The notes beneath the pieces were generated by a model that was not told the origin of the DNA, made no database searches, and saw only the letters and a program-made list of their open reading frames with translations. A program made the position numbers and the translations under genes. Of a stretch of DNA of 64,000 nt, positions 838 through 21,948 are shown piece after piece. Source of the DNA: an uncultured Rivularia sp. (GTDB taxonomy: Bacteria > Cyanobacteriota > Cyanobacteriia > Cyanobacteriales > Nostocaceae); NCBI GenBank assembly GCA_963665115.1, contig OY762007.1, forward strand, positions 3,232,001-3,296,000, in the 5' to 3' direction. Position 1 is the stretch's first letter, and each line of letters starts with the position of its first letter.

Positions 838-3800
838 TTGATGGGAACAATAAAAACAACACGTGCTAGTGAATTGGGAATAGTCAAAATGGTTTTATCA
901 TCATCTAAGTTATGTATGATTTCTGGGTATCGGATCATTGAGCAAATTCACATAAACAACCAAACTGTTATTTATAGAGGAGTCAGAGAAAAAGATCGTA
1001 AACCAGTAGTCATTAAACTGATGCGAAACGAATATCCTAATCCTCAAGAAATCGCTCAGTTTCGCAACCAGTACTCGATCGGGAAAAATCTAAATACACC
1101 CAGTATTGTCAAATCTTATAGCTTTGAAAATTACAATAAAAGCTATGCCCTTATAATGGAAGACTTTGGGGGAATTGCGTTAAGCAACGAAATAGAACGC
1201 TGGACTTTTGATGGAATACGCCAAAGTCCTGATTTTATCTATTATTTTCTCGATATTTCTATCAAAATAGTATCTGCTATTGATGAGTTACATCGTCATC
1301 AGATAATTCATAAAGATATTAAACCGGATAATATTTTAATTAACTCCAACACTAAGGAAATAAAAATAACAGATTTTAGTATTTCCACAATGTTATCTAG
1401 AGAAGTTCAATTCCTCAGCAATCCTGACGTTTTAGAAGGGACGCTTGCTTATATTTCCCCCGAACAAACTGGAAGGATGAATAGGGGTATTGACTATCGT
1501 AGCGATTATTATTCTCTAGGCATAACTTTGTTTGAGTTGCTAACCGGAGAATTACCTTTCAAAAATGACAACCCATTAGAGTTGATTTACTGTCATATAT
1601 CTCAACAGCCACCAGTTAACAAAATTATTAACTCTAATATCCCTTCGATAATATCAGACATAATTCGTAAATTGATGGAAAAAAATACCGAAGATCGCTA
1701 TCAAAGTGCTTTCGGAATAAAATATGACTTAGAATTATGCTTGCACCATCTACAAAAAAATAAACAGATAGAGCCTTTTGAGTTAGCAACCAAAGATATC
1801 TCAGATCGTTTTTCAATACCTGAAAAACTTTATGGTAGAGAAGTAGAGATACAAGAATTAATTGCTGCTTTTGATAGAGTTATAAATCCTCCCAAACACC
1901 ACATTGAAAAAGAAAAAGAAGTACGGAAAGGTGTAGAAGTAGTTTTTGTAAAAGGTTATTCCGGAATGGGAAAAACCGCAGTTATAGATGAAATCCACAA
2001 ACCCGTTATTAAAGAAAAAGGTTATTTCATCAAAGGGAAATTCAGCCAATTTAAACGAGATATTCCCTTTTCAGCATGGGTAGAAGCCTTAAGCAATTTA
2101 ATAGAGCAACTGCTGAGTGAAAGCGATACACAAATTGAGCAATGGAAAAGCAATATTCTCTCTAGTTTAGGTGACCAAGCTCAAGTAATAGTTGATTTAA
2201 TTCCACAGTTAGAACTAATCATTGGAGTACAACCTGAAGCAGCAGAATTATCTGGTATTGCGGCTCAGAATAGGTTACAGTTCTTATTTCATAAATTCAT
2301 CAAAATTTTCGCAATTAGAAAGCATCCCTTAGTTATATTTTTAGATGATTTGCAATGGGCAGATGCGGCTTCTCTAAATTTTGTTAAATTATTGGTGAGT
2401 GAAAATACTACAGTAAATAATCTAGGTAAATTGTCTAAAAAGTCAGGTATTCAGATGCCTGACTTTAATCAAGCTCACACTAATGATGATGATAATGCTC
2501 TATTGTTCATTGGCTCTTATAGAGATAACGAAGTTGATGTTACACACTCGCTTAATTTAACTATAAAAGAAATTCAACAAGAAAATGTAACTATTAGTTA
2601 TATAAAACTCGAACCTTTACATCAAAGTGATTTAGGTTTCTTGATTGCTGATACTTTTAAGTGCGAAGTAGATAGTATTGTTTTATTAACTCAAGTAGTA
2701 TTTGCTAAAACTAAAGGCAATCCATTCTTCATTCATCAATTTATTAAGGCTTTATATAAAGAGAAAGCGATCAAATTTAATTATGAAAGTGGTCGTTGGC
2801 AATGCGATGTTGCAGATGTAAAAAAATTAGCCCTTACAGATGATGTCGTAGAATTCATGGCGCTTCAAATAAAAAGACTACCAAGCTATAATCAAAAATT
2901 ACTAAAAGTCGCCGCTTGTATTGGCAGTAAATTTGATTTAAAAACTCTTGCTAAAATGAATGGTAAATCGACTGAAGATACGACAACAGAATTATGGGAA
3001 TCCGTATTGCAAGGGTTAGTGTTACCTGTAGTTAAAGACTACGTTTCATCAAATTCCGATCGTGAAATAACAGCATTAATAGTTGATAGTGATGATAAGA
3101 AAGAATTAGCTTTAAATCGTTCTAGAACTAGTCATTTTACATTTATACACGACCGGGTTCAACAAGCCGCTTATTCCTTGATTGCTGAGTCCGACAAACA
3201 GAAGATTCATTTAGAACTAGGAAAACAACTGTTAGAAAAGACTTCTGCCGATTCTTGGAAAGATGATATTTTTGAGACTGTTAATCAGTTCAACAAGGCT
3301 TTAGAATTAGTTACCGTTCAGCAAGAACGTTACGAATTAGCGAAAATGAACGTGCTTGCAGGACAAAAAGCTATCTCATCAACAGCTTATCAAGCAGCAT
3401 TAAAATATTTGAATACAGGAAAAGAACTGCTTATTTCTGATAGCTGGAAGACAGAATATGAATTGAGTCTGGGTTTATATGAAGCATTAGCAGAAGTTAC
3501 ATATTTAACAGGCGATTTTCAGGCTTCTGAAAAATATGTAGAAATAGTATTAGCGCAAGCTAATACGCTATTGGAAAAAATTAAAGTTTATGAAATTAGA
3601 ATTCAAGCTTATGGAGCGCAAGGAAAAGCAATAGAAGCGGTTAATACAGCACTTAATGTTCTCGAACAGTTAGGCATAGAATTTCCTGAGAATCCTACTC
3701 AATCTGATGTTGAACAAGCTATGGCACAAACAGCATTAAATCTTGCTGGCAGAGAAATAGAGGAGTTAGCCGATTTACCAGAAATGACGGAAGCAGAACC

Positions 3801-6570
3801 CTTAGCAGCAATGCGTATTCTCTCGAGTGCAATAACGCTTGCTTATCAAAGCTTCCCAGAACTAATGCCGCTAATTTGCAATAAACAAATTAGCTTATCT
3901 CTCAGACATGGGAATGCTCCCTTATCAGCCCTAGCATATATTACCTATGGATTAATTATGTGCGGAATAGTTGGAGATGTCGAAACTGGGTATAAATTTG
4001 GCAACCTAGCTGAAAACTTAGTAAATAAATTTCAGAACAAGGAAATATCGATCAAGGTGGCAGCGACATACAATCAATTAATAAAACCTTGGAAAGAGCA
4101 TATTACGAATACATTCCAACCTTTAGAAAATGTTTATTGTACTGGTATAGAAGTAGGAGATTTGGAATTCACGGCTCATGCTCTGAATGCTTTCTCTTAT
4201 CATGCATATTTTCTAGGCAAAGAACTAGAAGTACTGCAAGCAAATATTTTTAGTTACAGTGTTACTATTGAGCGAATCAAGCACGATAGAATTATTTACT
4301 GGAATGAAATCTATCGGCAAACTATCTTAAATTTGTATGAATGCGTTGAAGATCCATGCACTTTAAATGGTGAGGCATATAAAGAAGAAAAAAATATACC
4401 GCTTCATGTGGCAGCTAAAGATGGAGTTGCACTTTTTTGCTTATACATATGCAAGCTACAACTATGTTATCTGTTTGAAGAATATCTTGAAGCTTTTGAA
4501 AATGGAATCAAAGCAGAATATTATTTATATGGTGGAATTGCAAAATTCATTACTCCTCAGTTCTATTTCTACGACTCATTAACGCACTTGGCATTATACC
4601 CTGAAGCTTCTGAATCCGAGCAAAAGGAATTTATCGAAAAAGTAACGGCTAATCAAGAAAAAATGCAACATTGGGCAAATCATGCTCCGATGAATTTTCT
4701 GCATAAATTTCATTTAGTAGAAGCCGAAAAGAATAGCGTTTTAGGAAAAAAAATGGAAGCAATGGAACTATTTGATTTAGCCATTGCTGGAGCAAAAGAA
4801 AACGAATATCTTCATGAAGAAGCACTTGCGAACGAACTTGCAGCAAAATTCTATCTAAAATGGGGTAGGCAAAAAATAGCAAAAGCTTATCTTGATGATG
4901 CTTACTATGGCTACATTCGTTGGGGTGCAAAAGCTAAAGTTAAGGATTTGCAAAAACGCTATCCTCAATTACTTAATCATATTGTTTCACAGGAAGAAAC
5001 TAATAATACCGATAAAAATACTTCTTTAAGCGATATTAAACAACTATCTGAGATTAATAATCATAAAACCATATCAGGTACCAATAGCACCATCTCAACA
5101 TATTTAGATTTGGAATCAGTAATTCAAGCTTCTCAAGCACTTTCCGAACAAATACAGTTAGACGATTTACTTTCTACTTTGATGAAAGTGATTATGGAAA
5201 ATGCGGGAGCCTCTAAATCTGCTTTAATTTTAAGTAAAAATGCTAATTTAGAGTTGGAGCTAACTGCAATTAGTTGCAACGATAATATATCTTCTATTTC
5301 TACAGAATTACTTTTTACTCCTTTAGAGTCCAATAACAACGTTCCACTAAGTTTAATTAATTATGTCAAACGTACAAAGGAAAGTATCGTAATAGACGAT
5401 GTTGACACCCAAGATAACTTAGCTGCTGATAGCTACATTATCGCTCGAAAACCTAAAAGCATATTATGTATCCCAATTATTAACCAAGGAAAATTCTTCG
5501 GAATTCTTTACCTTGAAAATAAGCTAACAATAGGAGTCTTTACTCACAATCGTATAAACCTGATAAATTTAATTACTAATCAAGCTGCAATTTCTCTTAA
5601 GAATGCAATCCTTTACGATAATTTGATTGAAGCAAAAGAAAATTTAGAAAATCACAATCAAAGTTTAGAGGAAAAAGTTGTACAAAGAACGCAAGAGATT
5701 AATGACAAAAATAAAAACCTGGAAAAGGCTTTAAAGCAGCTACAAAGTACACAAGCTCAATTAGTTCAAACTGAAAAAATGTCAAGCTTAGGACAAATGA
5801 TAGCAGGAATTGCCCATGAAATTAATAACCCTGTAAATTTTATTCATGGCAATATTAATCATGCAGCTCAATATGTCCAATATTTAGTAGACTTAATCGT
5901 TATTTATCAGCAAGAATATACCAATCCCAACTCGATTGTTGTAAAGAAAGCTTCTGAAATTGATATAGATTTTGTACTTGAAGACTTACCCAAACTTCTG
6001 AATTCCATACAGGTAGGAACTTCACGTATTCGTAACATTATTTTAGGGTTACGTAACTTCTCTCGTTTGGATGAAGCCGAAATGAAATCTGTAGATGTTC
6101 ATGAAGGAATAGAAAACACCTTGATGATTTTGCAACACCGATTTAAAGCAAAAGATAGCCATCCCGAAATTCAAGTCATCAAAGAATATGGACAGCTATC
6201 TGAAATTACTTGTTACCCAAGTCAGCTTAACCAGGTGTTTATGAATATTTTGAGTAATGCAATTGATGTATTTAAAGAATCACAAATAAAACCTCAAAAA
6301 TTTGAAAATCCTACAATTTGTATTTCGACACAACTAGTAAATTCAAATACAGTAAGAATTCAGATTGCAGACAATGGTTCCGGAATTGAACAAAAAGTGC
6401 AGCAGAAAATATTTGATCCGTTTTTTACTACTAAACCAGTCGGAAGTGGTACGGGATTGGGTTTATCAATTAGCTATCAGATTATTGTTGAAAAGCATAA
6501 AGGTCAATTGATTTGTAATTCTAAAGTAGGAGAGGGGACTGAGTTTGTGATTGAAATACCGATGTCATAA
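838..6570 (+). CDS. Hybrid Ser/Thr kinase - AAA ATPase - GAF - histidine kinase (HstK/Pkn-type); start may be ATG 889
   Basis: Catalytic loop [27 protein letters not shown]-loop [19 protein letters not shown] segment, H-box [10 protein letters not shown]-boxes DNGSG and GTGLGL. Confidence 0.92.
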
Positions 6571-6626
6571 GATTAAGAAGATTCTACACGAATCAATATT
6601 TATATCTTTGTTCAGCAACCTCAAAT

Positions 6627-7361
6627 TCATTTATGTTTCATCGCAGTATAAAATGTAGGAACTTTAGGATAATTTCCATCTGGAAGTAAGAAAGCAATAT
6701 TAAGACAATCTTCTCCTGATTTCAATATTTCAAAATCGGGAAATAAACTTACTATTTCCTCTAATGTAACTGTACCCGGTCTCAAACCATGTTCGAGTAC
6801 AATTGTCATTTCGTCAGGCAGTTTCCCATATTTTTCTCTTATAGAATTAAAGTAGTTTACTGCATTTATACCTAGCTCAATAAGATAAATGAGACCGCTA
6901 TTTCCTAGCAATATCTGTAGAGATTCAGCGAATCTAGAACGCTTTTCTACCGGAATATGATGAAAACCCGTTCTCATATAGATATTAGCATCGCCGATTT
7001 CAGAATGAAGAGATTCTGCTTGCTCTGGCTTTAAAGCATCGAGTATTCGATATTCTATGTTTGAAGCATGATGCTTAGCTTTAGCCATTTCTAAAGCGCT
7101 TTTAGAAACATCAATTCCAATTACCTTTGTAAAATAGTCTGCAAGAAAACGAGTTTGGGTACCATTGCCACAAGCAAAGTCAATTAAAGGCAATTGAGAA
7201 TCCATCGCATCTTTGAAACGAGGTAGATCCCTAGCTGCTGCAACTTCGGGGCTGCAATCCCACAAGATAGGGTTAGACAACTTAGAAGTTTTATTCCAAT
7301 AAGATTCCCACGCGGAAGAAATATCTATATTTGGTTTGTCTTCCAAAATTATTTTTTCCAT
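6627..7361 (-). CDS. Class I SAM-dependent methyltransferase
   Basis: Motif I LIDFACGNG, then VIGIDVS and FHHIP; third gene of a co-oriented trio. Confidence 0.85.
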   Translation of the reverse strand: MEKIILEDKPNIDISSAWESYWNKTSKLSNPILWDCSPEVAAARDLPRFKDAMDSQLPLIDFACGNGTQTRFLADYFTKVIGIDVSKSALEMAKAKHHASNIEYRILDALKPEQAESLHSEIGDANIYMRTGFHHIPVEKRSRFAESLQILLGNSGLIYLIELGINAVNYFNSIREKYGKLPDEMTIVLEHGLRPGTVTLEEIVSLFPDFEILKSGEDCLNIAFLLPDGNYPKVPTFYTAMKHK

Positions 7362-7582
7362 CAGTCAATTAAATCTCCACTAGAGGTAACAAAAGTTGGT
7401 GTACAATCAAACTAAAAGTCATTATTTAATGAACTCATCTATTAACTATTAGTTTGTTACAAGTAAGTTCGCTCAAATAAACCTAACTATGTAACTAAAC
7501 TTAAAATACTCGAAACCACTGCGATTGCTTAATTTCGCTCTAATTCGTTCGCAATGACGTAGAGATAAATTTCTCCACTCAC

Positions 7583-9181
7583 CTAGTTAATATTAGAGAG
7601 TGATGCTTCTAATCGAATTGTTTCACTCTCACTTGATAATTGATGACTTAAGAATTTTAGTAATGGATTAGTATGAACATCTTCTAGCCATTCACTATCT
7701 ATATCTTCAATAACATGATGTTCTGCGATCAACTTACTACCACAGAAGTGACGAATTATAGGATGTATACCCGAACTTAATGAAGCTCGCTCGACATCAT
7801 CTTTATGAATCCTCTCAACTGCAAATGGATCTGGACTTGCAAATATGATATCAAGTCCAAATTCTAAAGTTACAGTATAGTAATGTTTTTGCTGACCTAA
7901 ATTGCTATCATGTACATAATCTGTAGGAATATCTCTGTAGTATCGTGCTTTATTGTCATCTTTAGATACTACAATAAGGTCACACAAATATCCAGTTTGC
8001 TGCCATAAACCAGAGCTTTTATTTACTCGCTGAATAATAGTCTGCATTAAAATTTCAGCAGTACAGTCAATTCTCTGGCAAGGTAGCTGTTGATTATAAT
8101 ATTTATAATCTAATATTTGATGTAATGCCCGAATGTTATAGCGGAATCCGTGAATAAAGCCGGATTGTTTCTTTTTATAATCCCGCATATGAGTCAATAT
8201 TCCAACAAAATATAAGTCTTTAATGTTGGTTGATTCCCATTCACTTGTTTGATTTGGGTAGCGATTATTAATAGTTAACTGAGGCTGACATGATTCATCA
8301 AAGATAGAGTTATCGAAACGGAAGCCAGTACATACTATTACACGATCGTAAATTAAATCCTCAACTTCTCCATCTGCGTGTCCGTAGGTAAAGGTAACAA
8401 TGTATTTACCTTCTTTAAACTCAATTTTTTCTACATTAGCGTCCAAAACTACATTTTGCGATTTCAGCTGGTAAGTATCAAGAAAGTTGTTGTTGATGCC
8501 TCTCAAATGCCCAACATATTTAGTCTTCCATGCCATCTCTACAGGAGTGGGACTAACTATATGAATAAGTGAAGCTGTTGCAACTAAATTATCAGCAGTT
8601 TCAAAGCCAGAGTTTCCTTTACCAATAATCAATACCCGTTGATTCGCAAAGTCTTCTGGATCTACTGATACATCTGTATAATTTTCCGCGAACTCTATTC
8701 CAGGAATGTCTGGGACATATGGTTTACTAAAACCAGTAGCTACAATTAAACGAGCCGCTGAGAAAACATTACCATTGCTATCTATCACCATAAATTTATT
8801 ATTTTTGGCGATTCTAACAACTTGGCAATTATATTTGATATTGAGGTTAAAATGATTGGCGAAATCACCGAAATATCTAACCAAATCATCTGTATGGGGA
8901 AAATATTCTCTGCTGTAATTCTTAAAAAGCATTTCTTCACTATCGCTTAATAAAGAATTCCAATCCCAACGAAGATTTATCTCAGAATCTTCAAACCCTG
9001 TGTATACTTTATTAATTGAAATTAACTTTTTATGTCTAGGAAACTTATTAAAAAAGTTTCCCGCTTTATTTGAACCTTCAAGAATAAGATAATCACGATT
9101 AGCTTTTTCGAGATAATAACCAAGCTGTAATCCAGCAGGGCCTGCACCAATAATCAAGTATTCAAATTCTGGTAAAATCAT
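7583..9181 (-). CDS. FAD/NAD(P)H-dependent oxidoreductase, FOXRED2 (ERFAD)-like, class-B flavin monooxygenase architecture
   Basis: FAD motif IIGAGPAG, ATG motif LIVATG, second Rossmann motif IIGKGNSG, CTGF; the FPRHKKLISINKVYTG...NLRWDWNSLL segment matches FOXRED2 as I recall it. Confidence 0.8.
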   Translation of the reverse strand: MILPEFEYLIIGAGPAGLQLGYYLEKANRDYLILEGSNKAGNFFNKFPRHKKLISINKVYTGFEDSEINLRWDWNSLLSDSEEMLFKNYSREYFPHTDDLVRYFGDFANHFNLNIKYNCQVVRIAKNNKFMVIDSNGNVFSAARLIVATGFSKPYVPDIPGIEFAENYTDVSVDPEDFANQRVLIIGKGNSGFETADNLVATASLIHIVSPTPVEMAWKTKYVGHLRGINNNFLDTYQLKSQNVVLDANVEKIEFKEGKYIVTFTYGHADGEVEDLIYDRVIVCTGFRFDNSIFDESCQPQLTINNRYPNQTSEWESTNIKDLYFVGILTHMRDYKKKQSGFIHGFRYNIRALHQILDYKYYNQQLPCQRIDCTAEILMQTIIQRVNKSSGLWQQTGYLCDLIVVSKDDNKARYYRDIPTDYVHDSNLGQQKHYYTVTLEFGLDIIFASPDPFAVERIHKDDVERASLSSGIHPIIRHFCGSKLIAEHHVIEDIDSEWLEDVHTNPLLKFLSHQLSSESETIRLEASLSNIN

Positions 9182-9339
9182 AATATTCTAGTAACAGCCA
9201 AGAATTTATACAACAGAAAAGCGCTTTTTAGGACTATTTAAGCTTGTTTTTACAAATGTAAAATTAAAATACAGGAGAAAAACCTATATATTCAATTATT
9301 AAAATTATAAAAAAGAATGAAATAGTCCTGTGAAAGCAT

Positions 9340-10089
9340 TTAGACAATAGATAATGTTTTTTCAACAAGCTCAGATTCGATAAAAGGTTTATCCATATAG
9401 TGTTTATGAGCAAAAAGAAGCATCTCGTTTGTTGCGTTCATAAAGTCTGTAAATACTCTTTCTACCAAAATAAAAGCTTTTTCTTTTTGCAGTTCTGTAA
9501 GCTTTATTTCTTCAAGAAAATGCTCTATATCATCCATATCCGATTGAATATGACCTGTTTCGACAGCATAATGAGAGTGTGCAAAATAAGGATGATGTTG
9601 TTTTGTAATTTTCTTTAATTCCTCAGCCACTAATCCTGTCTCATACAAGGCGACATTTCCTGTCACTTCTATTGATTCAATAATAACCAGCTTCATTAAC
9701 AAATCATCTTCAAAACTACACATTCCGAATAGGTTATAAGCCATCAAACGGACATTTTGTGTTTCTTCTCCCCACACAAATCTTAAGGCATCTGTAAAAT
9801 TATATTGATTATCAAAGCCAAGTAACTTAAGGTCTTGTAAAAACCATTTCCAATGACGACCATCCTCATAAGTATGCTGGTTTATCATTTGTTGGATTTT
9901 GTTATTAGCTGGCTCTTTACGAAGAGTAAGACTATTAAAGTCTTTAAAACTCATGGCAAAAGGTGTAAAGCAAGGGGCCCAAGCTAGCCTTTGTCTTGGA
10001 TGTATGCTTTTATCTTGGAGGAACTTAATAAATGGTGATTGAGCAAACTCCTGTTTTTTTATTTGAATGTATTCCAAAACTTCTTTCAT
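9340..10089 (-). CDS. Heme-oxygenase-like diiron oxidase (HDO), AetD/BesC type
   Basis: HTYEDGRHWKWFLQDLKLLGFD, ALRFVW, VIIESIEVTG and HSHYAVETGH carry the His/Glu/Asp diiron ligand pattern and parallel AetD as recalled; AAGGAG RBS supports ATG at 10089 (track start 10095). Confidence 0.8.
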   Translation of the reverse strand: MKEVLEYIQIKKQEFAQSPFIKFLQDKSIHPRQRLAWAPCFTPFAMSFKDFNSLTLRKEPANNKIQQMINQHTYEDGRHWKWFLQDLKLLGFDNQYNFTDALRFVWGEETQNVRLMAYNLFGMCSFEDDLLMKLVIIESIEVTGNVALYETGLVAEELKKITKQHHPYFAHSHYAVETGHIQSDMDDIEHFLEEIKLTELQKEKAFILVERVFTDFMNATNEMLLFAHKHYMDKPFIESELVEKTLSIV

Positions 10090-11052
10090 TTTCAATACTC
10101 CTTACATTAATTACCTAGCTGCAAAAAATCGGAATAAAACACCGGCATTTAAACTTTTCGTAATTCCTATTCGATGTTTTCTTATTAGCTTCTAATTTCA
10201 GTAGCTAGCTTTCTAAAACTATTATTGAATAATTTTTAAGTGTAAATATCCGTAAATACGTTTAACTATGTGTTTATTTTCAAAAAAAAATAACGGAGTA
10301 TTAATGCATCCAGAATTAAAAATTAAATACATAGTATATAGATAAATATCTAATATTATATTTTTCAAATTAGCGTATATTTAACGACTTATACCATGTC
10401 AGTAATCTGATGTAACCCTATCAAAACCGTAAAATAGTAGGCTTTATTACTTACTTGTATTGGCTAAAGATTTCAAATACTTAATAACTATAAAAATTAT
10501 CTAGCTATTTTTATTTACAGAACACTTAAGTATTATCCACTAAATGTCAACAAACCGTAATTTTATTTATTGGCTAAATATTTGCTTATTAATTAATTTT
10601 CAAAACTTGAAAAGTGGTTAAAATCTTTGATATACCTTTTAAATTAGACATCATATATAATTGAGAAAATAATGTACGCTTTTATACGTCAAGCTAATAA
10701 GCGTCAAATAGACATTTAATAACATCCAAATAGGTAGATGATTTTTTTAGGGAAATATAGTATACGCCTTAAGATTCAAAAATAGTAGTTTTTTATATAT
10801 CTTTTGATAGATGACTATTTAATTTTTAATGTCTTTCTATCACAGTCCGAAACAGTTACACTACAGAATCCATTTTCTTATCAGTAATCTAGAAACAAGC
10901 GCGAAAGAATATATCAAATTGAATTGATGTAGCTGCCTTTCATCCCGATATTTTGTCCGGTAGAATGCTAATAAGAAAGGTTTTACTTAGGTTCAAACTA
11001 ATAAAAACCAATTAGATATATTTGAGATTATCTACCTTGTATAAAAAAATAA

Positions 11053-11086
11053 AAATGGCTGTTCGCTTTAATTGGAACAGCCATTT
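11053..11086 (-). terminator. Hairpin downstream of ndhB, probable terminator
   Basis: AAATGGCTGTTC...GAACAGCCATTT 12-bp stem with an A-run on the left (T-run on the minus strand). Confidence 0.55.
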
Positions 11087-11187
11087 ACTATTAATGAAAA
11101 ATTATTCTTTTGACAACACTTAAGTATTGCTAACGAAAGATCGTTTTCAAGCTCCTTGTAATAAAGGAGCGAAAAAAGTAATTCCTT

Positions 11188-12741
11188 CTACGGCTGCTGA
11201 TTCATAGCTACATTAGCCCCAGGGGTAGAAACTATTGATTTCTGCAACATAGGGGTGTTAGCAACCGAATTATTTGCCAAGGTAAATAATGGGTTGGAAA
11301 GAATTCCTGCAATAGAGGTGGCAATTAAAGTAGTTACCAAGCCTATTTGTAATGGTCTTAATCCAGGTAAATTCCAATTGATTGGGGGATAATTCTTCAC
11401 TACATCGGACATTTCTTGAGGTTCTTTCACTACCATCATCTTGACGACGCGGATGTAATAGTAAATAGATACCACGCTAGTAACCAAACCCAATAAAACT
11501 AAGCCATAAAGACCTGCTTGCCAACCTGCCCAGAAAAGGTAGATTTTACCAAAGAACCCGGCTAAAGGAGGAATGCCCCCCAAGGAAAGCAAAGAAAAGC
11601 TTAAACCCAAAGTCAAAAGTGGGTCTTTCTGATATAAACCAGAGTACTCGGTAATTTGGTCGGTTCCCGTCCGTAGAGAGAACAGAATTACGCAGGTAAA
11701 ACCACAAAGGTTCATAAACAGGTAAACTAGCAAGTAAAATATCATGCTGGAATATCCTGCTTCTGTGCCAGCAATCAAGCCAATCATCACAAACCCAGCT
11801 TGAGCAATAGATGAATAAGCCAGCATCCGTTTCATGCTAGTTTGGGCAAGGGCAACCACGTTACCCAATACCATACTTAATACAGCTAAAGCGGTAAATA
11901 CGAATCTCCACTCATCAGCCACCAGAGGAAATACTGTTGTTAGCAAACGGATAGCTAAAGCAAAACCCGCAGCTTTGGAACCTACAGATAAAAACGCAAT
12001 TACCGGAGTTGGTGCGCCTTCATATACATCTGGTGTCCATTGGTGAAAAGGTGCGGCAGATATTTTAAAACCTATACCAGCAATTACAAACACTAAGGCA
12101 ACAACTACACCCAAGGATTGACCGAGGTTTGCAGTTTCGATGCCAGTGGCGATCGCGCTCAGTTCAGTTTGTCCACCAGACAATCCGTAAAGCAGGGAAA
12201 CACCATACAAAAAGACGGCCGTGCTAGAAGCTCCAATCAACAAATATTTGAGTGAGGCTTCGTTAGAACGAGGGTCGCGCTTGGTATAACCTGTCAATAA
12301 ATAAGAGGAAATACTAAGAGTTTCTAAGGAGATGAAAACCATCACCAACTCATTAGCACCCGATAGAAACATTCCTCCAAGGGTGGCAGTAAGCAAAATA
12401 GCGATAAATTCTGCTAAGGCGGTACCACTTTGTTCAACGTAGCGAATTGACATCAAAATAGTGATAACCGCACTTAGAGCAATAATACCGCGAAATACGA
12501 TACTAAGGTCATCGCCATTGAAGGCACCAATAAATGATATGGGATTAGGATTATCCCATTGAAGATACAAAGCGACCAAAGAAGCAAGTAAACCTGCAAT
12601 TGCTAGATACCCAATCCAGCGTGCGGACGAACGTCCTAAAATCAAGTCTACGATCAAAACCCCTAAAAAGGTGATAATTACAATCCCCTCTGGTACTATC
12701 GTTCCAGCATTTAACTGGGATGCAAGGTTAACAAAATCCAT
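11188..12741 (-). CDS. ndhB: NAD(P)H-quinone oxidoreductase subunit 2 (NDH-1 NdhB)
   Basis: [21 protein letters not shown] start, [41 protein letters not shown]. Confidence 0.97.
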
Positions 12742-13185
12742 GAGATATACAGGTTTCGACTATTAGACTTTCACACTAACTCTGTTAATTCTATTGTTTT
12801 TTACTGTTATTTCACCAAAATCATTCAAGATGAAAGTTAAATTCTACCTTTCAATTTGTATAGCTAAACATTTGTACTATATTTACTGCTATTAAAAAGT
12901 ACCTCTTGCATTAATGTCACAAACCGGGTTTTTTTCTAAGAAAGCATGAGCAGGACACTTGGTTTCTTTGGAGTTGTTGAGAGTGGTGCAAGATTTCAAT
13001 TAAAAAGCACCTCGTAAAAGGTGCTTTCGTAATTATTAAATCTAACTTTTATGTTTTCTTCAGTACTTAGTATGCTTTAATTTATCTAAAAATCGCTGAA
13101 ATAGTTGCTATACAAGGATTGTTATTTTCTACAATCGAGATTCGGGAACTAATAAATTTTTTCCTCTATTCCCTATTCCCTCTTC

Positions 13186-13287
13186 TAAGCTGCTGCACAT
13201 CTAATTTGTATTATCGTAGCGGGCAAGATGCCCGCACTACAAAACTTTCAAAAATTCCAATATACAAATTAAAAGATTTTTAGCTTA
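13186..13287. mobile_element. MITE-like element enclosing a REP palindrome (same family as 27733-27835)
   Basis: TAAGCTGCTGCACATCTAATTTGTA ... TACAAATTAAAAGATTTTTAGCTTA ends around GCGGGCAAGATGCCCGCACTAC. Confidence 0.6.
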
Positions 13288-13341
13288 CTACTATTTTATT
13301 GGCTTTCTAAACTACGGAAGAACAACTTTAATCAAAAGTTT

Positions 13342-13966
13342 TTAAGCTTCGTGGCGAACGCGAGGAGTACGTGCCCCAGCTGCTGCTCCAACCATTGATG
13401 CGATTAAACCCAGTAAAGAACCGAATACAAACCACCATAAACCTTTGGAAGTCGCTTCTGCAATTTGAGTAGCTTGTTGTGGATTAATGTTGGGTACATT
13501 TTGCGGAATATCAGCACTTTGTATCTGATTAATTACTTCCCCAGCGTTATAAGCCGCAACACCGAAAGCTCCAGATACACCACTTGCTAGCAACCAAGAA
13601 CTAACAGCTAAAGTTGTAGCCCAAAGAATTGCACCATTTAGCAAAGCTGTACTGCGATTCATGGGGCCCGCAAGCACGAGTTGTAATCCAACCAGCAACA
13701 AACAAGGAGATTAACAAAGCTATTGTTGACCAAATGCCTACGTTACCTGCAATATTGGGTGCAATACTTCCAGGTGTACTAGAGTCGGAAACAAACGTTG
13801 CTCCAATAGCACCGAACAAAGCGCTTAAAATTAATTGAGTAGCTAAACCAACCAACAAGCCAGAGATAATCGGACCCCAACGAACGCGATCGTGATAATC
13901 TACTACTCTACTTGTTACAACAGGTTCATTAATTACTTCTTCACCGACTCTATTTACATAAGACAT
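13342..13966 (-). CDS. Conserved multi-pass membrane protein, split by one extra base (probable sequencing error)
   Basis: ORFs 13601-13966 and 13342-13701 join as ...RACGPMNRSTALLNG... if one G is removed from GGGG at 13663-13666; DRVRWGPIISG N-terminal motif. Confidence 0.75.
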
Positions 13967-14449
13967 TATTTAGATATCTCCTGATTTTTTAACTAAAAAC
14001 TTTTTGAGCAATACTACTGCTTATAGTTAATAATTAAACGATCAATCTTAGCAATGCAAATCTATCCAACGGTATAGTTATTAGCTCTATCTTTAGCTAT
14101 AAGATACTGTTTTTAATCTTCGACAAAAGTTAACTTTTATTAAGGATATAATTTGATAACTTGTTGATGTTTTTTTTATAAAGATAAACCTAAAAAGCAA
14201 AAAATAGTAGGAATAGGTTTCGCGTCAATGCTATACTGTAAATAGCTTTTAAATTAAAAAATATTTTTAATTGTATCTTGAAAAAAGTTATTAGCTGTAC
14301 CAGTAGATGAATTCAATATAGTCGAAAATGACATCCCGGAGACAGAATAATTAGAAAACATTTTTTTAAAATTACTGTCTCCAGAGTGCCTATAACTTAC
14401 AGAAAATATTGACAATAATTACTTGTAAGCTATGTTTATGTGCTTGATA

Positions 14450-14779
14450 TTATTCACGTACTCTGACGGCAGTACCTACAGCAGTAATTAGTAATAAAAC
14501 ACCCGATTGATCGACATTGATTGTACCAGTATCAATTTCAATCCCGACAACAGCATTTGCTCCCAAACGCTGCGCTCGTTTTTCTAATTCTGAAAGTGCT
14601 TTTTGTTGACCTTCTTCAAATAAACGCTCGTAGCTACCTGTCCGTCCACCGATAATATCTCTTAAACCGGCGAAAAAATCTCGCATGAAATTACTGCCAT
14701 AAACAACTTCCGCCGTTACAACCCCTAAATAGGATTCAACGATAGCTCCTTGAATGACATCAGTAGTCGTAATAATCAT
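14450..14779 (-). CDS. YbjQ / UPF0145 family protein
   Basis: MIITTTDVIQG, RDFFAGLRDIIGGRTGSYE, GANAVVGI, GTAV. Confidence 0.92.
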   Translation of the reverse strand: MIITTTDVIQGAIVESYLGVVTAEVVYGSNFMRDFFAGLRDIIGGRTGSYERLFEEGQQKALSELEKRAQRLGANAVVGIEIDTGTINVDQSGVLLLITAVGTAVRVRE

Positions 14780-15676
14780 AGGTTTGCCTTCATAACTGGG
14801 TTATAATTCCAATTGTGAATGATTCTGCAATCAAATAAATCTCCCTCCGCAAGAAGATGCTTAGAAAGCAATAATTATAATCGTGCAAAAGTAATTTAAG
14901 ATTTTGTTTAGATAGTGAATAGGCAACAGGAAACGGTAATATAAGATTTAAGATAGCTACCTAACTTAATCGGGTGCTTTTGTTTAGCTTGTTAAATATT
15001 TTTTTCAAAAGTACAGCTATTACAGTTCTCTTATATGTTTTATAGCCGTTTTACTAGGTAAAGGGGTTAACACAATAATTAAAGGTTTGTGTAATATCAG
15101 CGTATTACAAATCTATTGCAAACGCAGATATATCTCAATCGTAATCTATTATCTACTAAATCAGTCCTGCAACAAACCATTGCTAAGTAGTCAGGTAAAA
15201 TTATTTATATATTTTAATATATTTTATTTACTGCTCAGTGATGTAATCGTGCCCTATTCCCTACCTAAACGAAATGTTTAATTAATTTTGCACAAATGCT
15301 TATCTAGGAATAAATAAAAAATTAGCGTAAGCCTAAAATTATGTTCCGTGGCTTAGTTGTAGGCAACAATACATTTAAATAATACTGAATAAAAAACAAC
15401 GATATAATACATTAGATATACATACTCTTTAATGAACTAGCTTTTAAACAGCGAAATTACCTAATATAGAGGTTTACTGCTCGAAATAGTAAACAAACAT
15501 TTCATAACCGAGTAATTACTTAGAAAAAATGCTTTTGTATCGCAGTAACGATAAATTAATTGTAAAATTCAAAAAAAGTAAGCAAATAGAGTTTTCAAAA
15601 TTCAATATTTTTGTTTTAATGGACAAGCATAAATTTAAGTTGTGGTAAAGTTGCGAAAACTTTCAGGTATTCAACT

Positions 15677-16357
15677 GTGTACAATCGAACATATTCTCTC
15701 ATCAGTGTTCTCTTAATAGGAAGTGTTGCTTCTGCAATGCCTTCTGTAGCTCGGGCTGAAGTAAAAGTGGCGCAGAAAAGCACTCAGCAGGTAAAAATAC
15801 TGCTGGATGAAGGGCGCAGGCTGGTAAAATCTGGTGACTTTAATGGCGCAATCAGAGTTTATCAAGAAGCTTCGAGCTTAGAACCAAAAAACGGCAGTAT
15901 TTATTCTGGTATTGGTTACTTGTATGCTCAGCAAGGGAATTATCGTGCAGCATTAGCATCTTACCGTCGTGCTGTGTCCTTAAATCCCAATAATGCCGAT
16001 TATCAATATGCTTTGGCTTACGTTAGCGGTAGCATGGGCGATAATAAAACGGCTAAAACAGCTTACCGTAAGTCCATACAAATCAACCGTGAAAACGTTA
16101 ATTCCTACATTGGATTAGCTTTGATTTTGTTACGTTTAGGCGAATATGATAACGCCAAATGGGCATATGAGAAGGTTGTAGAGTTAGACCCAAAAAATCC
16201 TCAAGCTTACGAGTTACGAGGTAGAATCTTGATGAAGAAAGGTCAGTCAAAAGAAGCAGCAGGAGCTTTGAAGAAGGCACAAAATTTATACGAGAGCCAG
16301 AAAAAATGGGACGCTGTTGCTCGGATAGATATAATGTTGCGTGATATTGAGGGGTAA
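15677..16357 (+). CDS. Exported tetratricopeptide-repeat protein
   Basis: Signal peptide ending ARA; several TPR-like repeats (e.g. ALASYRRAVSLNPNNADYQYALA). Confidence 0.85.
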   Translation: MYNRTYSLISVLLIGSVASAMPSVARAEVKVAQKSTQQVKILLDEGRRLVKSGDFNGAIRVYQEASSLEPKNGSIYSGIGYLYAQQGNYRAALASYRRAVSLNPNNADYQYALAYVSGSMGDNKTAKTAYRKSIQINRENVNSYIGLALILLRLGEYDNAKWAYEKVVELDPKNPQAYELRGRILMKKGQSKEAAGALKKAQNLYESQKKWDAVARIDIMLRDIEG

Positions 16358-17234
16358 ATTACCTTCTATTTTTTATCTTAATAATAGATAAAAAGTGACT
16401 GATGCTGACTTTCGATACTAGTACAATCCACCTATTCAGTAGGAATTGACTTATATGAATAAATAGGACTGTATCAAGAAAGCGTATTAACTTTATTGTT
16501 TGCTCGTGTCGTTTATCAATATTGACTCGAAGCAAGGTGGGAGTTGGAGATTATACTGTACTTATCCCACTTGCTTCATTCTCAAGCAATAACTTTACTT
16601 TTAATAATATTAGATACTAAAATATACAAATATAGTAGTTATTTTTATTCGTAATTATTCGTAAAAAGTGTCTAAAAGTTTTTTAAATTACATCATATTT
16701 CAAATTTAAGCTTAGAACCTAAGTTTAAATTCGCGTCGTCTCTAGCAGATTTTTGAATCCAGTTTCGACTTTTCTATGTGTTTGTGAAATATCTGTCTAT
16801 GTAAGTGCGAGCGCTTTTTAAGCAGCTTTGAGCGCTCTTGAAGCTCTTGTGACTGCTCATCAAGGTAGCTTATAGAGACCTCTGAGGTTTTTACTATCAA
16901 ATATCTATCCATTAATTTTATTTTTGCGATCAAGTTTAATGCTCTTATTCTCCCTAATTAAAATTGCTAAGTAAACTAGCATAAGAGATAATTAAAGATT
17001 AAAGTATTTGCACCTAAAGATATGAATGTTTGTTTCTCAAGATTAAATTTTAATCATCTTTAGTCATAAGAACTCAAAAAAAGCCTGCCAAATTAACCAA
17101 AAGGTAGTCAGTTTGATTAAAAAAACTATCAAAAAATTGTGTTCGTAGAGGGTGTTATGGGCAAGAATGTTCTGACTTAAACAAGTGTATTTTATTTAAC
17201 TATAAACCGATTATATAAATTTAAATCCATCAAC

Positions 17235-18591
17235 TTATGCGTTTAGACTAAAAGGAATTGAAATGATAAATTCGCTTCCTGTTCCTAATTCTGAAATACA
17301 TTCAATTTCTCCGTTATGGTTATCAACGATGATTTGATAACTAACTGCTAATCCCATTCCAGTACCTTTACCTACTACTTTTGTAGTAAAAAATGGGTCA
17401 AATAAACGTTTGCTTGCTTCTTGAGTTATTCCAATACCATTATCAGTAATGTGAATTATAGCTTTGTTATCTACTGTCTCTGTAATAATCTTAATCTGAG
17501 GATTAGAAGTATTGTTTAGTTCTGATTTTTCTTCTAATGCATCAATTGCATTAGAGATTACGCTCATGAATACTTGATTTAACTGTTTCGGATAACATTC
17601 CACTTTTGGTAACTGAGCATACTCTTTTATGACTTGGATTTGTTTTCTATGAGGAGCTTGATTTATACGATGCTGCAATAGAATTATCGTATTTTCAATG
17701 CCTGCATGAATATCTACAGACTTGTAATTAGCTTCGTCAAGGTGAGAAAAATCTCTCAAGGATTGCACAATTTTACCGATTCTTTCGGCACCTTGATGCA
17801 TTGACTGAAGCAAGTTAGGAAAATCTTTGATAATAAAATCTAAATCAATATCATCTATATGTTGGTCAATTTCTGCTGCGGCTTCAGGATAATTCTTCCG
17901 ATATAAATTAATTAAACTAAGTAAATCTCCTAAATAACCTGTTGCTGCATCAATATTTCCATAAATAAAGCTAGTAGGATTATTTATTTCATGGGCTACA
18001 CCTGCAACTAAGCTGCCCAAAGATGCCATCTTTTCAGAAAGCAATAATTGGGCTTGAGTCAGTTTTAACTTGGCAAGGGTTTTTTCTAATTCTTGTGCTT
18101 TCTGCCGTTTCTCTTAATTCTGATTGTTGAAGTGCTTCTTCTGCTCGTTTGCGCTCGCTGATATCTCGCGCTACCCAAACCGCTTGAGTTTCACAAATAG
18201 GCGAAATACTTGCACTAAACCAATACTTAGTTTCTTCGACAACAAGACTGTAATCGTAATGAATTGTTTGTACTAATTTCAAAGCTTGACTAACTTTTTC
18301 TAACCAGGTTAGTTTAGCTTGTTCTTGAAAAAACTGTTCTACCGTTTCTCCAATCAAATCTATATCGCTATCTGAACTACTATATTTTGTAGGTATGATT
18401 TCTACATTACTTAGTACATTTCCATCAGCATGGATAATAAGCACTATGTCCGTCATTGCCTCAAAAATTGCTCTTACTTTGTTTTCGGAGCTACTCAGCT
18501 TTTCTTCAAGTAAATCGCGCTCTAGCATATCTTTTTTCAGTTTCTGATTTATTTTTTTTAATTCAGATAATTGCTGATAAAGTTCATCCAT
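17235..18591 (-). CDS. PAS-domain sensor histidine kinase, split by one extra base near 18108-18110
   Basis: PAS end WVARDISERKRAEEAL; removing one base gives ELRERQKAQELEKTLAKLKLTQAQLLLSEKMASLG, in frame with GVAHEINNP and the HATPase domain. Confidence 0.85.
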
Positions 18592-18728
18592 GAAATTATC
18601 TTATTATTTTTGGCTAAAGCCGTATTTTTTATACTGAATTAATATACTAGAAAAGAAAGTAAGCAAAGGTGAAAAAAAGCTACATTAATTAATGATGCAA
18701 TTAACAAGCATAATAAGAACATATATAA

Positions 18729-20423
18729 TTATTTTTCCGAGTTTTTATAAGCATTTTTTCTCGCCAGCCAATTGCTAGCAATTGGCATTCGCCAACCAGT
18801 ACCGAAAGCGCGATCTGTAATTTTGATTCCTGGGGGTGCCTGTCGCCGCTTAAATTCTGCACGAGTCACCATTTGAATAATTCGGTTGACAATTGATACA
18901 TCATGCCCTGCTGCAATTATTTGCTCTGCTGATTGATAATCATTAATTAAACGTTGCAAAATATCATCTAAAACTTCGTAATCTGGTAATGAATCTCGAT
19001 CGAGTTGATCGGGTTTAAGCTCTGCACTCGGTGCTTTAGTTAAAACATTTTGCGGAATTACTTCGCCGTTTCTGTTTAACCAATGACAGATCGAGTAAAC
19101 GCGGGTTTTAGGAACATCGGCAATCACGGCTAAACCACCATTCATATCGCCGTATAAAGTGCAGTAACCAACTGCCATCTCCGACTTGTTACCAGTTGAT
19201 AGCAGAAGATAACCAAATTTATTTGAAATTGCCATTAATAAGTTACCGCGAATTCGAGATTGGATGTTCTCTTCTGCCAATCCAAATTCAGTATCTGCAA
19301 ATAATTCTGCAAAGGTACCGTCATAAGACTTCATTAAATCTCCTATCGGCAGCTTTTGCGTGGTTATGCCAAGATTTTTCGCCAAGTCATCGGCATCCTG
19401 GATCGAAGATTCTGAACTGTAAGGAGAAGGCATCAACACGCCGAGTACATTTTCTTTTCCTAACGCTGCTGTGGCGATCGCCGCAACAATCGATGAATCA
19501 ATACCGCCACTTAAACCTAAAACTATTTTGGAAAAACGACATTTTTGAACGTAATCTTTTACTCCCAATACCAAAGCCTGCCAAATTTCTTCGTCTTCGC
19601 ATTTATAATCGGGTGCAATAGAGCCTACATTCAAATCAAGATTTTGTTTATCAAATTCTAGTTTAAGTAAATCAGTATCAAAACCACAAGCACGAGAAAT
19701 TACTTCACCGCGTTTATTCAAAGCAAAACTTCTACCATCAAAAATTAAATCGTCATTACCACCTACCTGATTTACATAGATAATTGGTGTTTTAAAACGT
19801 ATTGCAGTATGTTTCAACATAGCTTCGCGGAAGTGCTGTTTACCAAATGTATAAGGTGAAGCTGATAAATTAACAACTATATCTACGTTTAATTGAGATA
19901 ATTCGGCAATCGGATTTATGGAATAACTGCGCTTGCCAAAAAATTCTTCATCATTCCATAAATCTTCGCAAATCGTTACGCCGATTTTAACGTTATTTAA
20001 AGTAAAATAATTTACTTTATTACCAGCTTCAAAATATCGATGTTCGTCAAACACATCATAAGTTGGTAGCAATCGCTTGTGAAATATCTGTTTTACTTTT
20101 CCTTCAGCAAGTAAAGCAATGCTGTTATAAAGAGATTTACCTCCAGCAATATCTGCCTTCGTATTTTCTTCAGCGGTTCCGACTAATACCGCTAAATTAG
20201 CTGGTAAATCCTTGGCTAATTGTTGCAAAGCTATATTCATAGCCTGCATAAAATCAGGTTTTAATAATAAATCTCGTGGAGGATAGCCGCATAAAGAAAG
20301 TTCAGGAGTTAATAATAAATCGGCTTTATCTGCTACTGCTTTGTTGGCAGCCTCGATAATTTTTTGAATATTTCCGGGTATATCGCCAATAATTGGGTTG
20401 ATTTGAGCTATTGTAATTTTCAT
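18729..20423 (-). CDS. nadE: Glutamine-dependent NAD+ synthetase
   Basis: Nitrilase-type N-domain (TPELSLCGYPP, KRLLPTYDVFDE, ICEDLW) plus GLSGGIDSS, ENIQSRIRG, PSAELKPDQ. Confidence 0.96.
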   Translation of the reverse strand: MKITIAQINPIIGDIPGNIQKIIEAANKAVADKADLLLTPELSLCGYPPRDLLLKPDFMQAMNIALQQLAKDLPANLAVLVGTAEENTKADIAGGKSLYNSIALLAEGKVKQIFHKRLLPTYDVFDEHRYFEAGNKVNYFTLNNVKIGVTICEDLWNDEEFFGKRSYSINPIAELSQLNVDIVVNLSASPYTFGKQHFREAMLKHTAIRFKTPIIYVNQVGGNDDLIFDGRSFALNKRGEVISRACGFDTDLLKLEFDKQNLDLNVGSIAPDYKCEDEEIWQALVLGVKDYVQKCRFSKIVLGLSGGIDSSIVAAIATAALGKENVLGVLMPSPYSSESSIQDADDLAKNLGITTQKLPIGDLMKSYDGTFAELFADTEFGLAEENIQSRIRGNLLMAISNKFGYLLLSTGNKSEMAVGYCTLYGDMNGGLAVIADVPKTRVYSICHWLNRNGEVIPQNVLTKAPSAELKPDQLDRDSLPDYEVLDDILQRLINDYQSAEQIIAAGHDVSIVNRIIQMVTRAEFKRRQAPPGIKITDRAFGTGWRMPIASNWLARKNAYKNSEK

Positions 20424-20535
20424 TTATTAATTATTAATTGGGGAATTGGGAATAGGGAATTGGGAGTTAATATTATTTACTGATATTTCCTTTCTTTATT
20501 CTCTGTTTTGCTTTTATTAAATCATCTATATCAAA

Positions 20536-21842: not shown

Positions 21843-21948
21843 TATTAGTTATTAGTTGTTAGTTGTTAGTTGTTAGTTATTAGATGTTAGATTTTAAGAG
21901 CAATAATTAAAACTAAATTCAATAAACGCATTTTCTACTGTTAACTGC

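Follow-up and report, generated by a model that had tools for sequence, protein, structure and literature searches.

The locus described here lies in a 64,000-nt stretch of contig OY762007.1 from an uncultured Rivularia sp. (the window; all coordinates are counted from its first letter, and the genome to which it belongs is designated G000). According to the list of open reading frames (ORFs), three co-oriented genes occupy the minus strand at 6627-10089 and are flanked by ndhB and by the gene of a 1910-aa dual Ser/Thr-His kinase (Table 1). They encode a heme-oxygenase-like diiron oxidase (HDO) of the family that includes AetD and SktA, a flavoprotein, and a methyltransferase (MT), and will be called the trio. 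A sequence-only reading of this stretch had placed the three genes between ndhB and a giant kinase, behind a 1.1-kb AT-rich leader, and had taken them for a candidate undescribed biosynthetic operon with the kinase as its boundary. The layout was found to be as described. Comparison with related genomes showed that the flavoprotein is tied to the HDO, that the kinase is more than a boundary, and that the HDO gene has been exchanged repeatedly within an otherwise stable locus.

By its sequence, the first gene encodes a genuine member of the AetD family of HDOs, with every diiron ligand in place. A phmmer comparison with the PDB matched the protein to the AetD chains 8ji2, 8zvg and 8twn at E values of about 1e-48 (best 8.8e-49). 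The alignment runs end to end, from 3 to 236 of 251 positions in the query against 11 to 242 of 249 in the chain, in line with the likeness previously drawn by eye. Neither Pfam nor NCBIfam gave any match for this protein. Its homologues begin at MKEVL, in agreement with the ATG at 10089. The ligand motifs HxxEDxxH, ExxE and HxxxExGH that had been read from the translation are all present (H72-xx-E75-D76-xx-H79, E138-xx-E141 and H173-xxx-E177-x-G-H180), and they are invariant in 28 aligned homologues. In AetD, Fe1 is bound by H79, H172 and E176, and Fe2 by D76, E140, E176 and H179 (PMC10654658). This 3-His/3-carboxylate set is complete in the window HDO (6/6): H79, H172, E176, D76, E140 and H179 of AetD correspond to H79, H173, E177, D76, E141 and H180. 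The full-length homology to the solved AetD structures predicts a seven-helix heme-oxygenase-like fold.

The residues around the AetD substrate are F44, I146, Y167 and S214, of which S214 touches the 7-bromine (PMC10654658); the window HDO has F44, A147, Y168 and F216 at these positions. A 2026 review contrasts M139/A142/S214 of AetD with T139/T142/F214 of SktA (PMC13108848), the enzyme whose locus we recovered as L046 and whose sequence is 48% identical to the window HDO over 245 aa. With I140/T143/F216, the window HDO is SktA-like at two of these three positions. Since F216 replaces the residue that contacts the 7-bromine in AetD, and T143 replaces A142 as in SktA, the pocket fits a substrate without a 7-halogen. 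The pocket appears compatible with tryptophan as the predicted substrate. The gene content of the region was counted with the non-halogenated reading. Pfam scans covered nine ORFs of at least 80 aa in 838-16357 and four ORFs of at least 200 aa in 17235-23343, a 93-aa antisense ORF inside the kinase gene being left out. Among these ORFs no halogenase, P450, tryptophanase, nonribosomal peptide synthetase or polyketide synthase was detected, which agrees with the earlier statement that this is not an aet cluster.

Several variants of the HDO gene were encountered. G000 carries two further intact paralogues, 44% and 41% identical to the window HDO (L086, G000:C1:5709719-5716135, and L087, G000:C1:609560-612180), together with a 36-aa HDO fragment containing an in-frame TGA at C1:580392-580496. 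In two metagenome-assembled genomes (L062 and L071, at about 6100-7690), the flavoprotein gene comes after two HDO genes in tandem. A 418-aa metagenome protein, P0037, is 64% identical to the window HDO and joins an HDO to a C-terminal AraC-type DNA-binding domain. Three of nine conserved motif residues are gone from its HDO part (E75K, H79Y and H180Q), two of them corresponding to AetD iron ligands, and this part has the look of a former enzyme converted to ligand sensing.

Gene adjacency and natural fusions strongly support a link between HDO and flavoprotein, and mark the latter as a dedicated partner. The flavoprotein has a patchy distribution: it was found in 6 of 151 genomes sampled from the order and in 50 of 251 sampled from the family (24 of 68 genera), where an HDO was present in 142 genomes. 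The 251 family genomes contained 55 copies of the flavoprotein gene; 46 abut an intact HDO gene, 2 abut an HDO remnant and 7 have no HDO. These figures come from compared coordinates, 12 ambiguous places having been resolved by reading the sequence. Counted from the HDO side, 24 of 80 HDO loci from different named species have the flavoprotein next door. In addition, 8 of the 120 flavoprotein clusters listed (the other 119 are 65 to 89% identical to that of the window) are single polypeptides of 849 to 913 aa with an N-terminal HDO that is 39 to 48% identical to the window HDO. The linkers in these fusions are short, the HDO match ending at 228-240 and the flavoprotein match starting at 238-263. 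Among the fusions and some long flavoproteins, P0185, P0162, P0198 and P0229 have tails of about 120 aa beyond the flavoprotein, with weak matches to DUF4388 and/or DUF2949; only the P0185 tail reaches the cut-off (DUF4388, 25.0 bits versus 25). Two further listed proteins, the HDO P0003 (79% identical to that of the window) and the flavoprotein P0128 (82% identical to that of the window), come from the same source, with a longest contig of 4534 bases for both, and may be a third pair of flavoprotein and HDO of the window's own clade (clade A, see below).

The two Rossmann GxGxxG motifs that had been noticed in the flavoprotein are present as GAGPAG at 12-17 and GKGNSG at 187-192. The protein matches Pyr_redox_3 with an E value of 3.7e-56 over all 305 profile positions (1-305), and the FMO-like (flavin monooxygenase) profile with just 2.4e-7. 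Its AlphaFold model has a mean confidence (predicted local distance difference test, pLDDT) of 72.7. The top Foldseek matches are YpdA/Bdr, small flavin monooxygenases, 3d1c and the N-hydroxylase DesB, with a probability of 1.00 for YpdA, the small flavin monooxygenases and DesB. By sequence, the best named relatives of solved structure are class B monooxygenases (phenylacetone monooxygenase at 5e-11, flavin monooxygenases at 1e-9 to 1e-7), and reductases score more weakly (YpdA at 2e-6, ferredoxin-NADP and thioredoxin reductases at about 5e-6 and below). No CxxC, iron-sulfur motif or rubredoxin partner was seen on reading the translation. The C-terminal domain of about 175 aa (residues 355-532), modelled alone, reached a pLDDT of 80; none of its Foldseek matches passed E<=0.001 (best 0.086), and its best VIA-align Z score is 4.6, none being 5 or above.

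The sequence-only reading had likened the flavoprotein to FOXRED2 rather than to the halogenases AetF and AetA. For the canonical halogenases (AetA type) the second half of this statement was borne out: the Trp_halogenase profile PF04820 has no match in the flavoprotein at E<=1, and we conclude that the protein is not a canonical tryptophan halogenase. A relationship to AetF may exist, but no chain of that name occurs among 55 PDB sequence matches at E<=0.01 or among the Foldseek matches listed. The FOXRED2 resemblance is a lead only: it comes from a language-model comparison, without alignment or E value, in which a chordate FOXRED2 cluster was among the nearest neighbours (score 0.98, 229 of 256 features, rank 11), the closest clusters being actinobacterial. 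We know of no function for the FOXRED2 flavin domain.

Dual kinases are abundant in heterocystous cyanobacteria, and to our knowledge no ligand or signal is known for those of the cbSTKIII/HstK type. The window kinase contains, by Pfam, Pkinase at 43-289, AAA_16 at 330-525, GAF at 1441-1587, HisKA at about 1651 and HATPase_c at 1794-1909. An N-terminal Ser/Thr kinase, a GAF domain and C-terminal HisKA and HATPase domains in a very large protein make up the cbSTKIII architecture (PMC2176072), and iron starvation induces two dual kinases in Anabaena PCC 7120 (PMC2176072). We then counted kinase neighbours (matches of at least 500 aa within the locus flanks) at 80 HDO loci from named species. A dual kinase was found at 53 of the 80: at 0 of 16 in clade A, and at 53 of 64 outside it. 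The two genes are convergent, tandem or divergent, in several gene orders, and loci from outside the Nostocales are included. The dual kinase is thus the most consistent neighbour of the HDO family, and its earlier treatment as a mere boundary has to be abandoned. G000 itself has about 8 full-length kinase-like loci in 8.7 Mb, one of them broad enough to hold two genes. Of the three intact HDO paralogues of G000, two have a dual kinase within 3 kb, and the third abuts a PAS-GAF histidine kinase. One paralogue is 167 nt from a second dual kinase, which is read as two overlapping ORFs (a 290-aa Pkinase and 1559 aa), possibly through a frameshift. Elsewhere in the window, a stand-alone 269-aa HisKA-HATPase ORF (17235-18044, minus strand) has a phospho-acceptor sequence of the same type as the C-terminus of the giant kinase, and the region upstream shows no homology to sensors or kinases.

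A different kind of neighbour was found in clade A. There, HDO genes stand back to back with a small ORF of 143 to 161 aa, mostly PAS-like, and for 10 of 16 loci the gene next to it was confirmed as a GntR regulator. The small ORF occurs at L001, L002, L003, L005, L006, L009, L011, L012, L013, L015 and L035, whose HDOs are the nearest named kin of the window HDO, and GntR was confirmed in 10 of these 11, the L002 contig stopping at the small ORF. At L001 and L003 a receiver-AraC gene directly follows the HDO gene, and at L035, on a plasmid, an AraC gene lies 600 nt downstream. AetD-like HDOs therefore adjoin either dual kinases (53 of 80 loci) or PAS/GntR/AraC regulators, a pattern that is unreported: our literature search found no publication linking these HDOs with kinases, with this flavoprotein or with this MT.

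The history of the locus was reconstructed from its synteny. The order ndhB, spacer, HDO, flavoprotein, (MT), convergent kinase is kept in Calothrix sp. CCY 0018 (L024) and in four loci of the same genus as the window (L089, L090, L091 and L092). A further same-genus locus, L093, keeps the HDO, flavoprotein, an MT remnant and kinase on a contig that ends before ndhB, and the metagenome contig L101 keeps the trio and kinase and lacks the ndhB end. At L090 the syntenic dual kinase (11526-17255, minus strand) has two in-frame stops in the matched range and may be broken. Across the syntenic loci, identity to the window is 93 to 98% for ndhB, 81 to 89% for the flavoprotein and 69 to 79% for the kinase, and just 42 to 52% for the HDO; the HDOs found in this slot are 45 to 75% identical to one another.

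In a tree of 85 HDOs, the window HDO belongs to clade A, a group of 17 rows with a support of 100 (Shimodaira-Hasegawa-like approximate likelihood ratio test, SH-aLRT). The other 16 members have neither the flavoprotein nor a dual kinase nearby. The HDOs of L089, which has the MT, and of L090 fall in a 25-row clade that contains SktA. Forcing the eight slot HDOs to be monophyletic cost 331 log-likelihood units, with a P value of 4e-81 in the approximately unbiased test (p-AU), the constrained group having been named after a first tree had been seen. AetD stands outside these trees; its relation to the clades rests on E values and on the similarity network of the SktA study, in which AetD is isolated (PMC11869266). 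We conclude that the HDO gene has been replaced repeatedly inside an ancient syntenic locus, and that only the HDO was swapped between lineages. An origin of the whole locus as an accessory island, which the sequence-only reading had weakly favoured, was rejected on the conserved synteny, the HDO gene alone being of mixed ancestry.

The particular combination present in the window is nevertheless a stable one, since L101, the closest relative, carries a clade A HDO with the flavoprotein, MT and kinase. Identity between the two loci is 84% for the HDO, 85% for the flavoprotein, 81% for the MT and 78% for the kinase. The corresponding dN/dS values are 0.12, 0.11, 0.18 and 0.21, with a dS of about 0.6 to 0.7 for the trio: trio and kinase are under purifying selection. 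A region of the kinase that would co-vary with the HDO lineage, as in pherotype systems, was also sought and was unsupported. The GAF domain (1441-1587) is about as conserved as the rest, and the one stretch of low identity, 1101-1200, is poorly conserved even in L101, whose HDO is of the same type, and so lends no support to co-variation.

The MT matches Methyltransf_25 (8e-11) and Methyltransf_11 (4e-8) in Pfam, and the PDB entry 3ggd, a 'SAM-dependent methyltransferase', over its full length at an E value of 4.9e-95 with about 60% identity counted from the alignment; its match to CyaF (PDB 9k2f) has an E value of 1.3e-22. It was found in 14 of the 251 family genomes and adjoins the flavoprotein in only two of them, G000 and G346. 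The sequence-only reading had proposed conservation of the trio as a check. For the HDO-flavoprotein pair the check was positive (46 of 55 copies), but the full trio is rare. Ten of 14 informative MT copies adjoin an HDO or HDO-like gene and a dual kinase. The full trio with the kinase is present in the window, L089 (G346), the metagenome locus L101, L021 (Lusitaniella) and L032; L103 has HDO, MT and kinase; and in L098, L099, L105 and L106 a distant HDO-like gene is accompanied by the MT, a FAD_binding_4 oxidase and a dual kinase. A 47-aa MT remnant occurs in L093/L070, and the MT is found with no HDO nearby at L100, L102, L104 and L107. We conclude that the MT is an occasional member of HDO cassettes. 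In the cassette of L098 (5685-8502), L099, L105 and L106, a third type, the order is HDO-like gene, same MT family, FAD_binding_4/cytokinin-dehydrogenase-like oxidase, dual kinase. The HDO-like protein has 224 aa, is 21 to 26% identical to the window HDO by tblastn, has no Pfam match and keeps all six ligands. In L098, the only locus in which the upstream genes were read, it adjoins a GATase_4 gene and a 506-aa ORF that, by eye, reads as anthranilate synthase component I.

Table 1. Features of the locus in the window
Feature	Coordinates	Strand	Remarks
Dual Ser/Thr-His kinase gene	838..6570	+	1910 aa; cbSTKIII/HstK type; convergent on the trio
MT gene	6627..7361	-	244 aa; class I, S-adenosylmethionine (SAM)-dependent; PDB 3ggd family
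Partner flavoprotein gene	7583..9181	-	532 aa; Pyr_redox_3
HDO gene	9340..10089	-	249 aa; ATG at 10089 taken as start; ORF 9340-10095 with in-frame TTG at 10095
AT-rich spacer between ndhB and HDO	10090..11187	-	1098 nt; GC 0.26
Conserved block in spacer	10668..10793	-	Candidate promoter or regulator site
Hairpin 3' of ndhB	11053..11086	-	Perfect 12-bp inverted repeat
ndhB (NDH-1 subunit 2)	11188..12741	-	Proton_antipo_M and Ndh2_N domains; upstream syntenic anchor, outside the pathway

The stop codons of the convergent kinase and MT genes are 56 nt apart. The GC content of the spacer between ndhB and the HDO gene compares with about 0.34 to 0.35 in the genes, and its length is 965 to 1345 nt in five syntenic loci (L024, L089, L090, L091 and L092). 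About 590 nt upstream of the HDO start, some 100 nt are conserved in the block at 10668-10793, which holds TCTTAAGG..TACTATATTT and a direct repeat, TTGACG-N9-TTGACG. By blastn the block is 72 to 81% identical to L024, L092, L101 and L089, with a short 83% match to L090, and a six-locus alignment has 36 invariant columns; it is a candidate promoter or regulator site. The pattern TTGACG-N9-TTGAYG has 29 occurrences in the genome versus about 5 expected, and none of the 28 others is at another HDO locus, so that nothing is concluded from this excess. The hairpin lies about 100 nt downstream of the ndhB stop, is 100% complementary and sits inside a 200-nt block conserved after ndhB. It is likely the 3' end of ndhB, presumably acting as a terminator, in which case the HDO genes would form a separate transcription unit. 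Rfam gave nothing at or near threshold in the leader (best E values 0.063 and 0.15), promoter-like and terminator-like sites there were not above shuffles, and no small ORF conserved across seven syntenic spacers was found.

The HIP1 motif (GCGATCGC) has 15 sites in the window. As had been noted by eye, none lies in the first 12 kb, the first being at 12149; at a density of 15 sites per 64 kb, this would arise by chance with a Poisson probability of about 0.06, which is weak. Beyond the locus, 18729-23343 (minus strand) holds ordinary NAD salvage genes, namely a glutamine-dependent NAD synthetase, a Nudix-winged-helix regulator (NrtR/AraR_C-type) and a nicotinate phosphoribosyltransferase.

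A pathway can be proposed from these data. We predict, with about as much confidence as doubt, that the trio uses free L-tryptophan, without a halogen, to make a small indole that is oxygenated and methylated and may serve as a signal. By analogy with AetD, tryptophan would coordinate Fe1 of the HDO through its amine and carboxylate groups, and the reaction with O2 would cleave or rearrange the side chain, giving a 3-substituted indole, which may be skatole-like, with HCN and CO2, as for SktA, or a nitrile or aldehyde as for AetD. Oxygenation of the indole product by the NAD(P)H/FAD flavoprotein is the most likely next step, as proposed for SktC, after which the MT would cap the new hydroxyl or the indole nitrogen. 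The convergent dual kinase may sense or control this indole chemistry.

Several observations weigh against such a pathway. The exact product of the HDO is not predictable, as AetD and SktA share ligands and pocket yet differ in their products. Gaps of 158 and 221 nt within the trio mean that co-transcription is not implied by the layout. Four of the 14 informative MT copies have no HDO nearby. The flavoprotein departs by one residue, by eye, from the flavin monooxygenase signature, FxGxxxHxxxY/F. It is lacking from 92 of the 142 HDO-bearing genomes of the family sample, which, together with the activity of SktA alone in vitro with ascorbate, indicates that it is not needed for the HDO chemistry as such. 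Finally, within the slot the flavoproteins are 78 to 89% conserved, versus 42 to 75% for the adjoining, polyphyletic HDOs; this fits tailoring no better than it fits a role independent of HDO lineage, for instance electron supply.

The main alternative follows from this last point. The flavoprotein could be the physiological NAD(P)H electron donor that takes the diferric HDO to the diferrous state, in a two-component system (self-sufficient in the fusions) whose final product is that of the HDO, optionally methylated. We know of no physiological reductant or cellular partner assigned to any HDO. By stoichiometry, the conversion of tryptophan to skatole, HCN and CO2 would be a two-electron oxidation, so that each O2 turnover would need two outside electrons, supplied in vitro by ascorbate. 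Natural fusions with short linkers suit a donor, and a flavoprotein that stays constant while unrelated HDO lineages are swapped is what would be expected of a role independent of the HDO product. NADPH-dependent reductases are among the top Foldseek matches (YpdA/Bdr at 9e-19, thioredoxin reductase-like ferredoxin-NADP reductases at 3e-18), and NCBIfam weakly matched the protein to NorW, a flavodiiron-system reductase (7.6e-9, well short of the cut-off). However, skatole formation by SktA in E. coli required no partner (PMC11869266), most HDO-bearing genomes do without the flavoprotein (the 92 of 142 above), and the flavoprotein is nearer in sequence to class B monooxygenases than to reductases and has no CxxC, iron-sulfur motif or rubredoxin partner. 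An electron donor is accordingly a possible, if somewhat unlikely, identity for the flavoprotein. Still less probable, in our view very unlikely, is that the trio is a mere product of history, with the MT and perhaps the flavoprotein serving unrelated metabolism and no three-step pathway at all. The gaps between the genes, the MT copies without an HDO, and an MT beside the flavoprotein in just 2 of 251 genomes would suit this explanation, but fusions and adjacency (46 of 55 copies) bind the flavoprotein to the HDO, the MT family stands next to HDO-like genes in three cassette types, and the trio has been kept at a dS of about 0.6 to 0.7 with low dN/dS.

A third alternative, which excludes none of the others, concerns the kinase: the HDO, with or without its partners, may be mainly a sensory or signal-generating device rather than part of a secondary-metabolite pathway, whose labile diiron site and tryptophan pocket report iron, O2 or tryptophan status to the dual kinase, via a ligand or by direct contact. 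This would account for the dual kinase at 53 of 80 HDO loci (53 of 64 outside clade A) in varied orientations and orders, for the regulatory neighbours of two of the three G000 paralogues, which lie near one of only about 8 kinase loci in 8.7 Mb, and of the third with its PAS-GAF histidine kinase, and for the PAS-like small ORF, GntR and occasional receiver-AraC genes beside clade A HDOs. The HDO-AraC fusion P0037 with its lost iron ligands, the DUF4388 tail of some fusions (P0185) and the iron-responsive Anabaena kinases (PMC2176072) point the same way. Against it, SktA and AetD are efficient enzymes with roles in natural products (PMC11869266, PMC10654658), and the window HDO keeps every ligand and has tailoring-type neighbours. 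No region of the kinase co-varies with the HDO lineage, the GAF domain being no exception. Synteny by descent accounts for part of the adjacency, and because related loci are not independent, the neighbour counts overstate the case. The case is one of gene neighbourhoods, and we regard a sensory device as rather doubtful.

The pathway to a methylated indole and the regulatory neighbours can be joined in one broader proposal, which we put forward as speculative and on balance improbable. Cyanobacterial AetD-like HDOs would be the signal-making half of a tryptophan-derived (indole-type) system hard-wired to HstK-type kinases or to PAS/GntR/AraC regulators; the FOXRED2-like flavoprotein would be the missing physiological partner; and swapping of the HDO in a fixed flavoprotein-kinase slot would diversify the signal between strains.

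HDOs are a fast-growing enzyme class. Adjacency and fusions now give an HDO of the tryptophan-cleaving branch a dedicated flavoprotein partner, which may be either the missing reductase or the next oxygenase. The same flavoprotein family may include FOXRED2-like proteins, and would then offer a lead toward a FOXRED2-like substrate. The recurrent pairing of HDO and dual kinase provides a first candidate source of ligand for the dual kinases, and the skt 'biosynthetic gene cluster', as published, may represent one form of a more general regulatory cassette.

Among known systems, AetD, the nitrile synthase of aetokthonotoxin biosynthesis (PDB 8ji2, 8twn; PMC10654658, PMC11611611), resembles the window HDO in its full-length homology, its ligands and the conserved contacts F44 and Y167. 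It differs at four positions, where I146, S214, M139 and A142 are replaced by A147, F216, I140 and T143, and the AetA and AetF halogenases, the tryptophanase AetE and the P450 AetB were not found among the ORFs scanned in 838-23343. FOXRED2 and the bacterial Pyr_redox_3 proteins annotated as 'NAD(P)-binding domain-containing' (about 500 to 600 aa) share with the flavoprotein a Pfam core (Pyr_redox_3, Pyr_redox_2, Lys_Orn_oxgnase-like) and a similar length; linkage to an HDO, by contrast, was seen here in cyanobacteria only. The cbSTKIII/HstK kinases of filamentous cyanobacteria share the architecture and very large size of the window kinase, but no link to an HDO gene is mentioned in the portions of their description available to us (PMC2176072).

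The nearest characterised system is the skt cluster, not aet, and the trio is undescribed only as regards its tailoring set. AetD homologues are widespread in Nostocales (PMC11869266). SktA of Nostoc punctiforme NIES-2108 alone converts tryptophan or 5-bromotryptophan to skatole(s), cyanide and bicarbonate (PMC11869266, JACS 2025), working in vitro with ascorbate and, for skatole, in E. coli without a partner (PMC11869266). In the cluster, the skatole synthase SktA is accompanied by the tryptophan 5-halogenase SktB and by SktC, an insoluble flavin monooxygenase of unknown role (Adak et al., PMC11869266). Locus L046 shows the HDO, a PF04820 halogenase (E value 1.9e-149), a PF00743 flavin monooxygenase (SktC; FMO-like at 1.6e-54) and, truncated at the edge of the locus, a convergent GAF-HisKA-HATPase protein. 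The window differs from it in having no SktB-type halogenase (PF04820) and in its flavoprotein, which is Pyr_redox_3 with an extra C-terminal domain rather than a PF00743 SktC and has no tblastn match in L046 at E<=1e-5. It adds an MT, an enzyme that goes unmentioned in the consulted main text and supplement of the SktA study, the supplement also being without 'kinase' or 'neighborhood' ('kinase' was looked for in the supplement only). Its HDO belongs to a separate, strongly supported clade (17 rows, SH-aLRT 100). The two loci nonetheless have much in common: each is a small cluster from a cyanobacterium in which an AetD homologue comes first, with flavoenzyme gene(s) next to it and no P450 or tryptophanase, the HDOs share pocket residues of the T142 and F214 type of SktA, and the SktA locus, like that of the window, ends at a convergent dual kinase.

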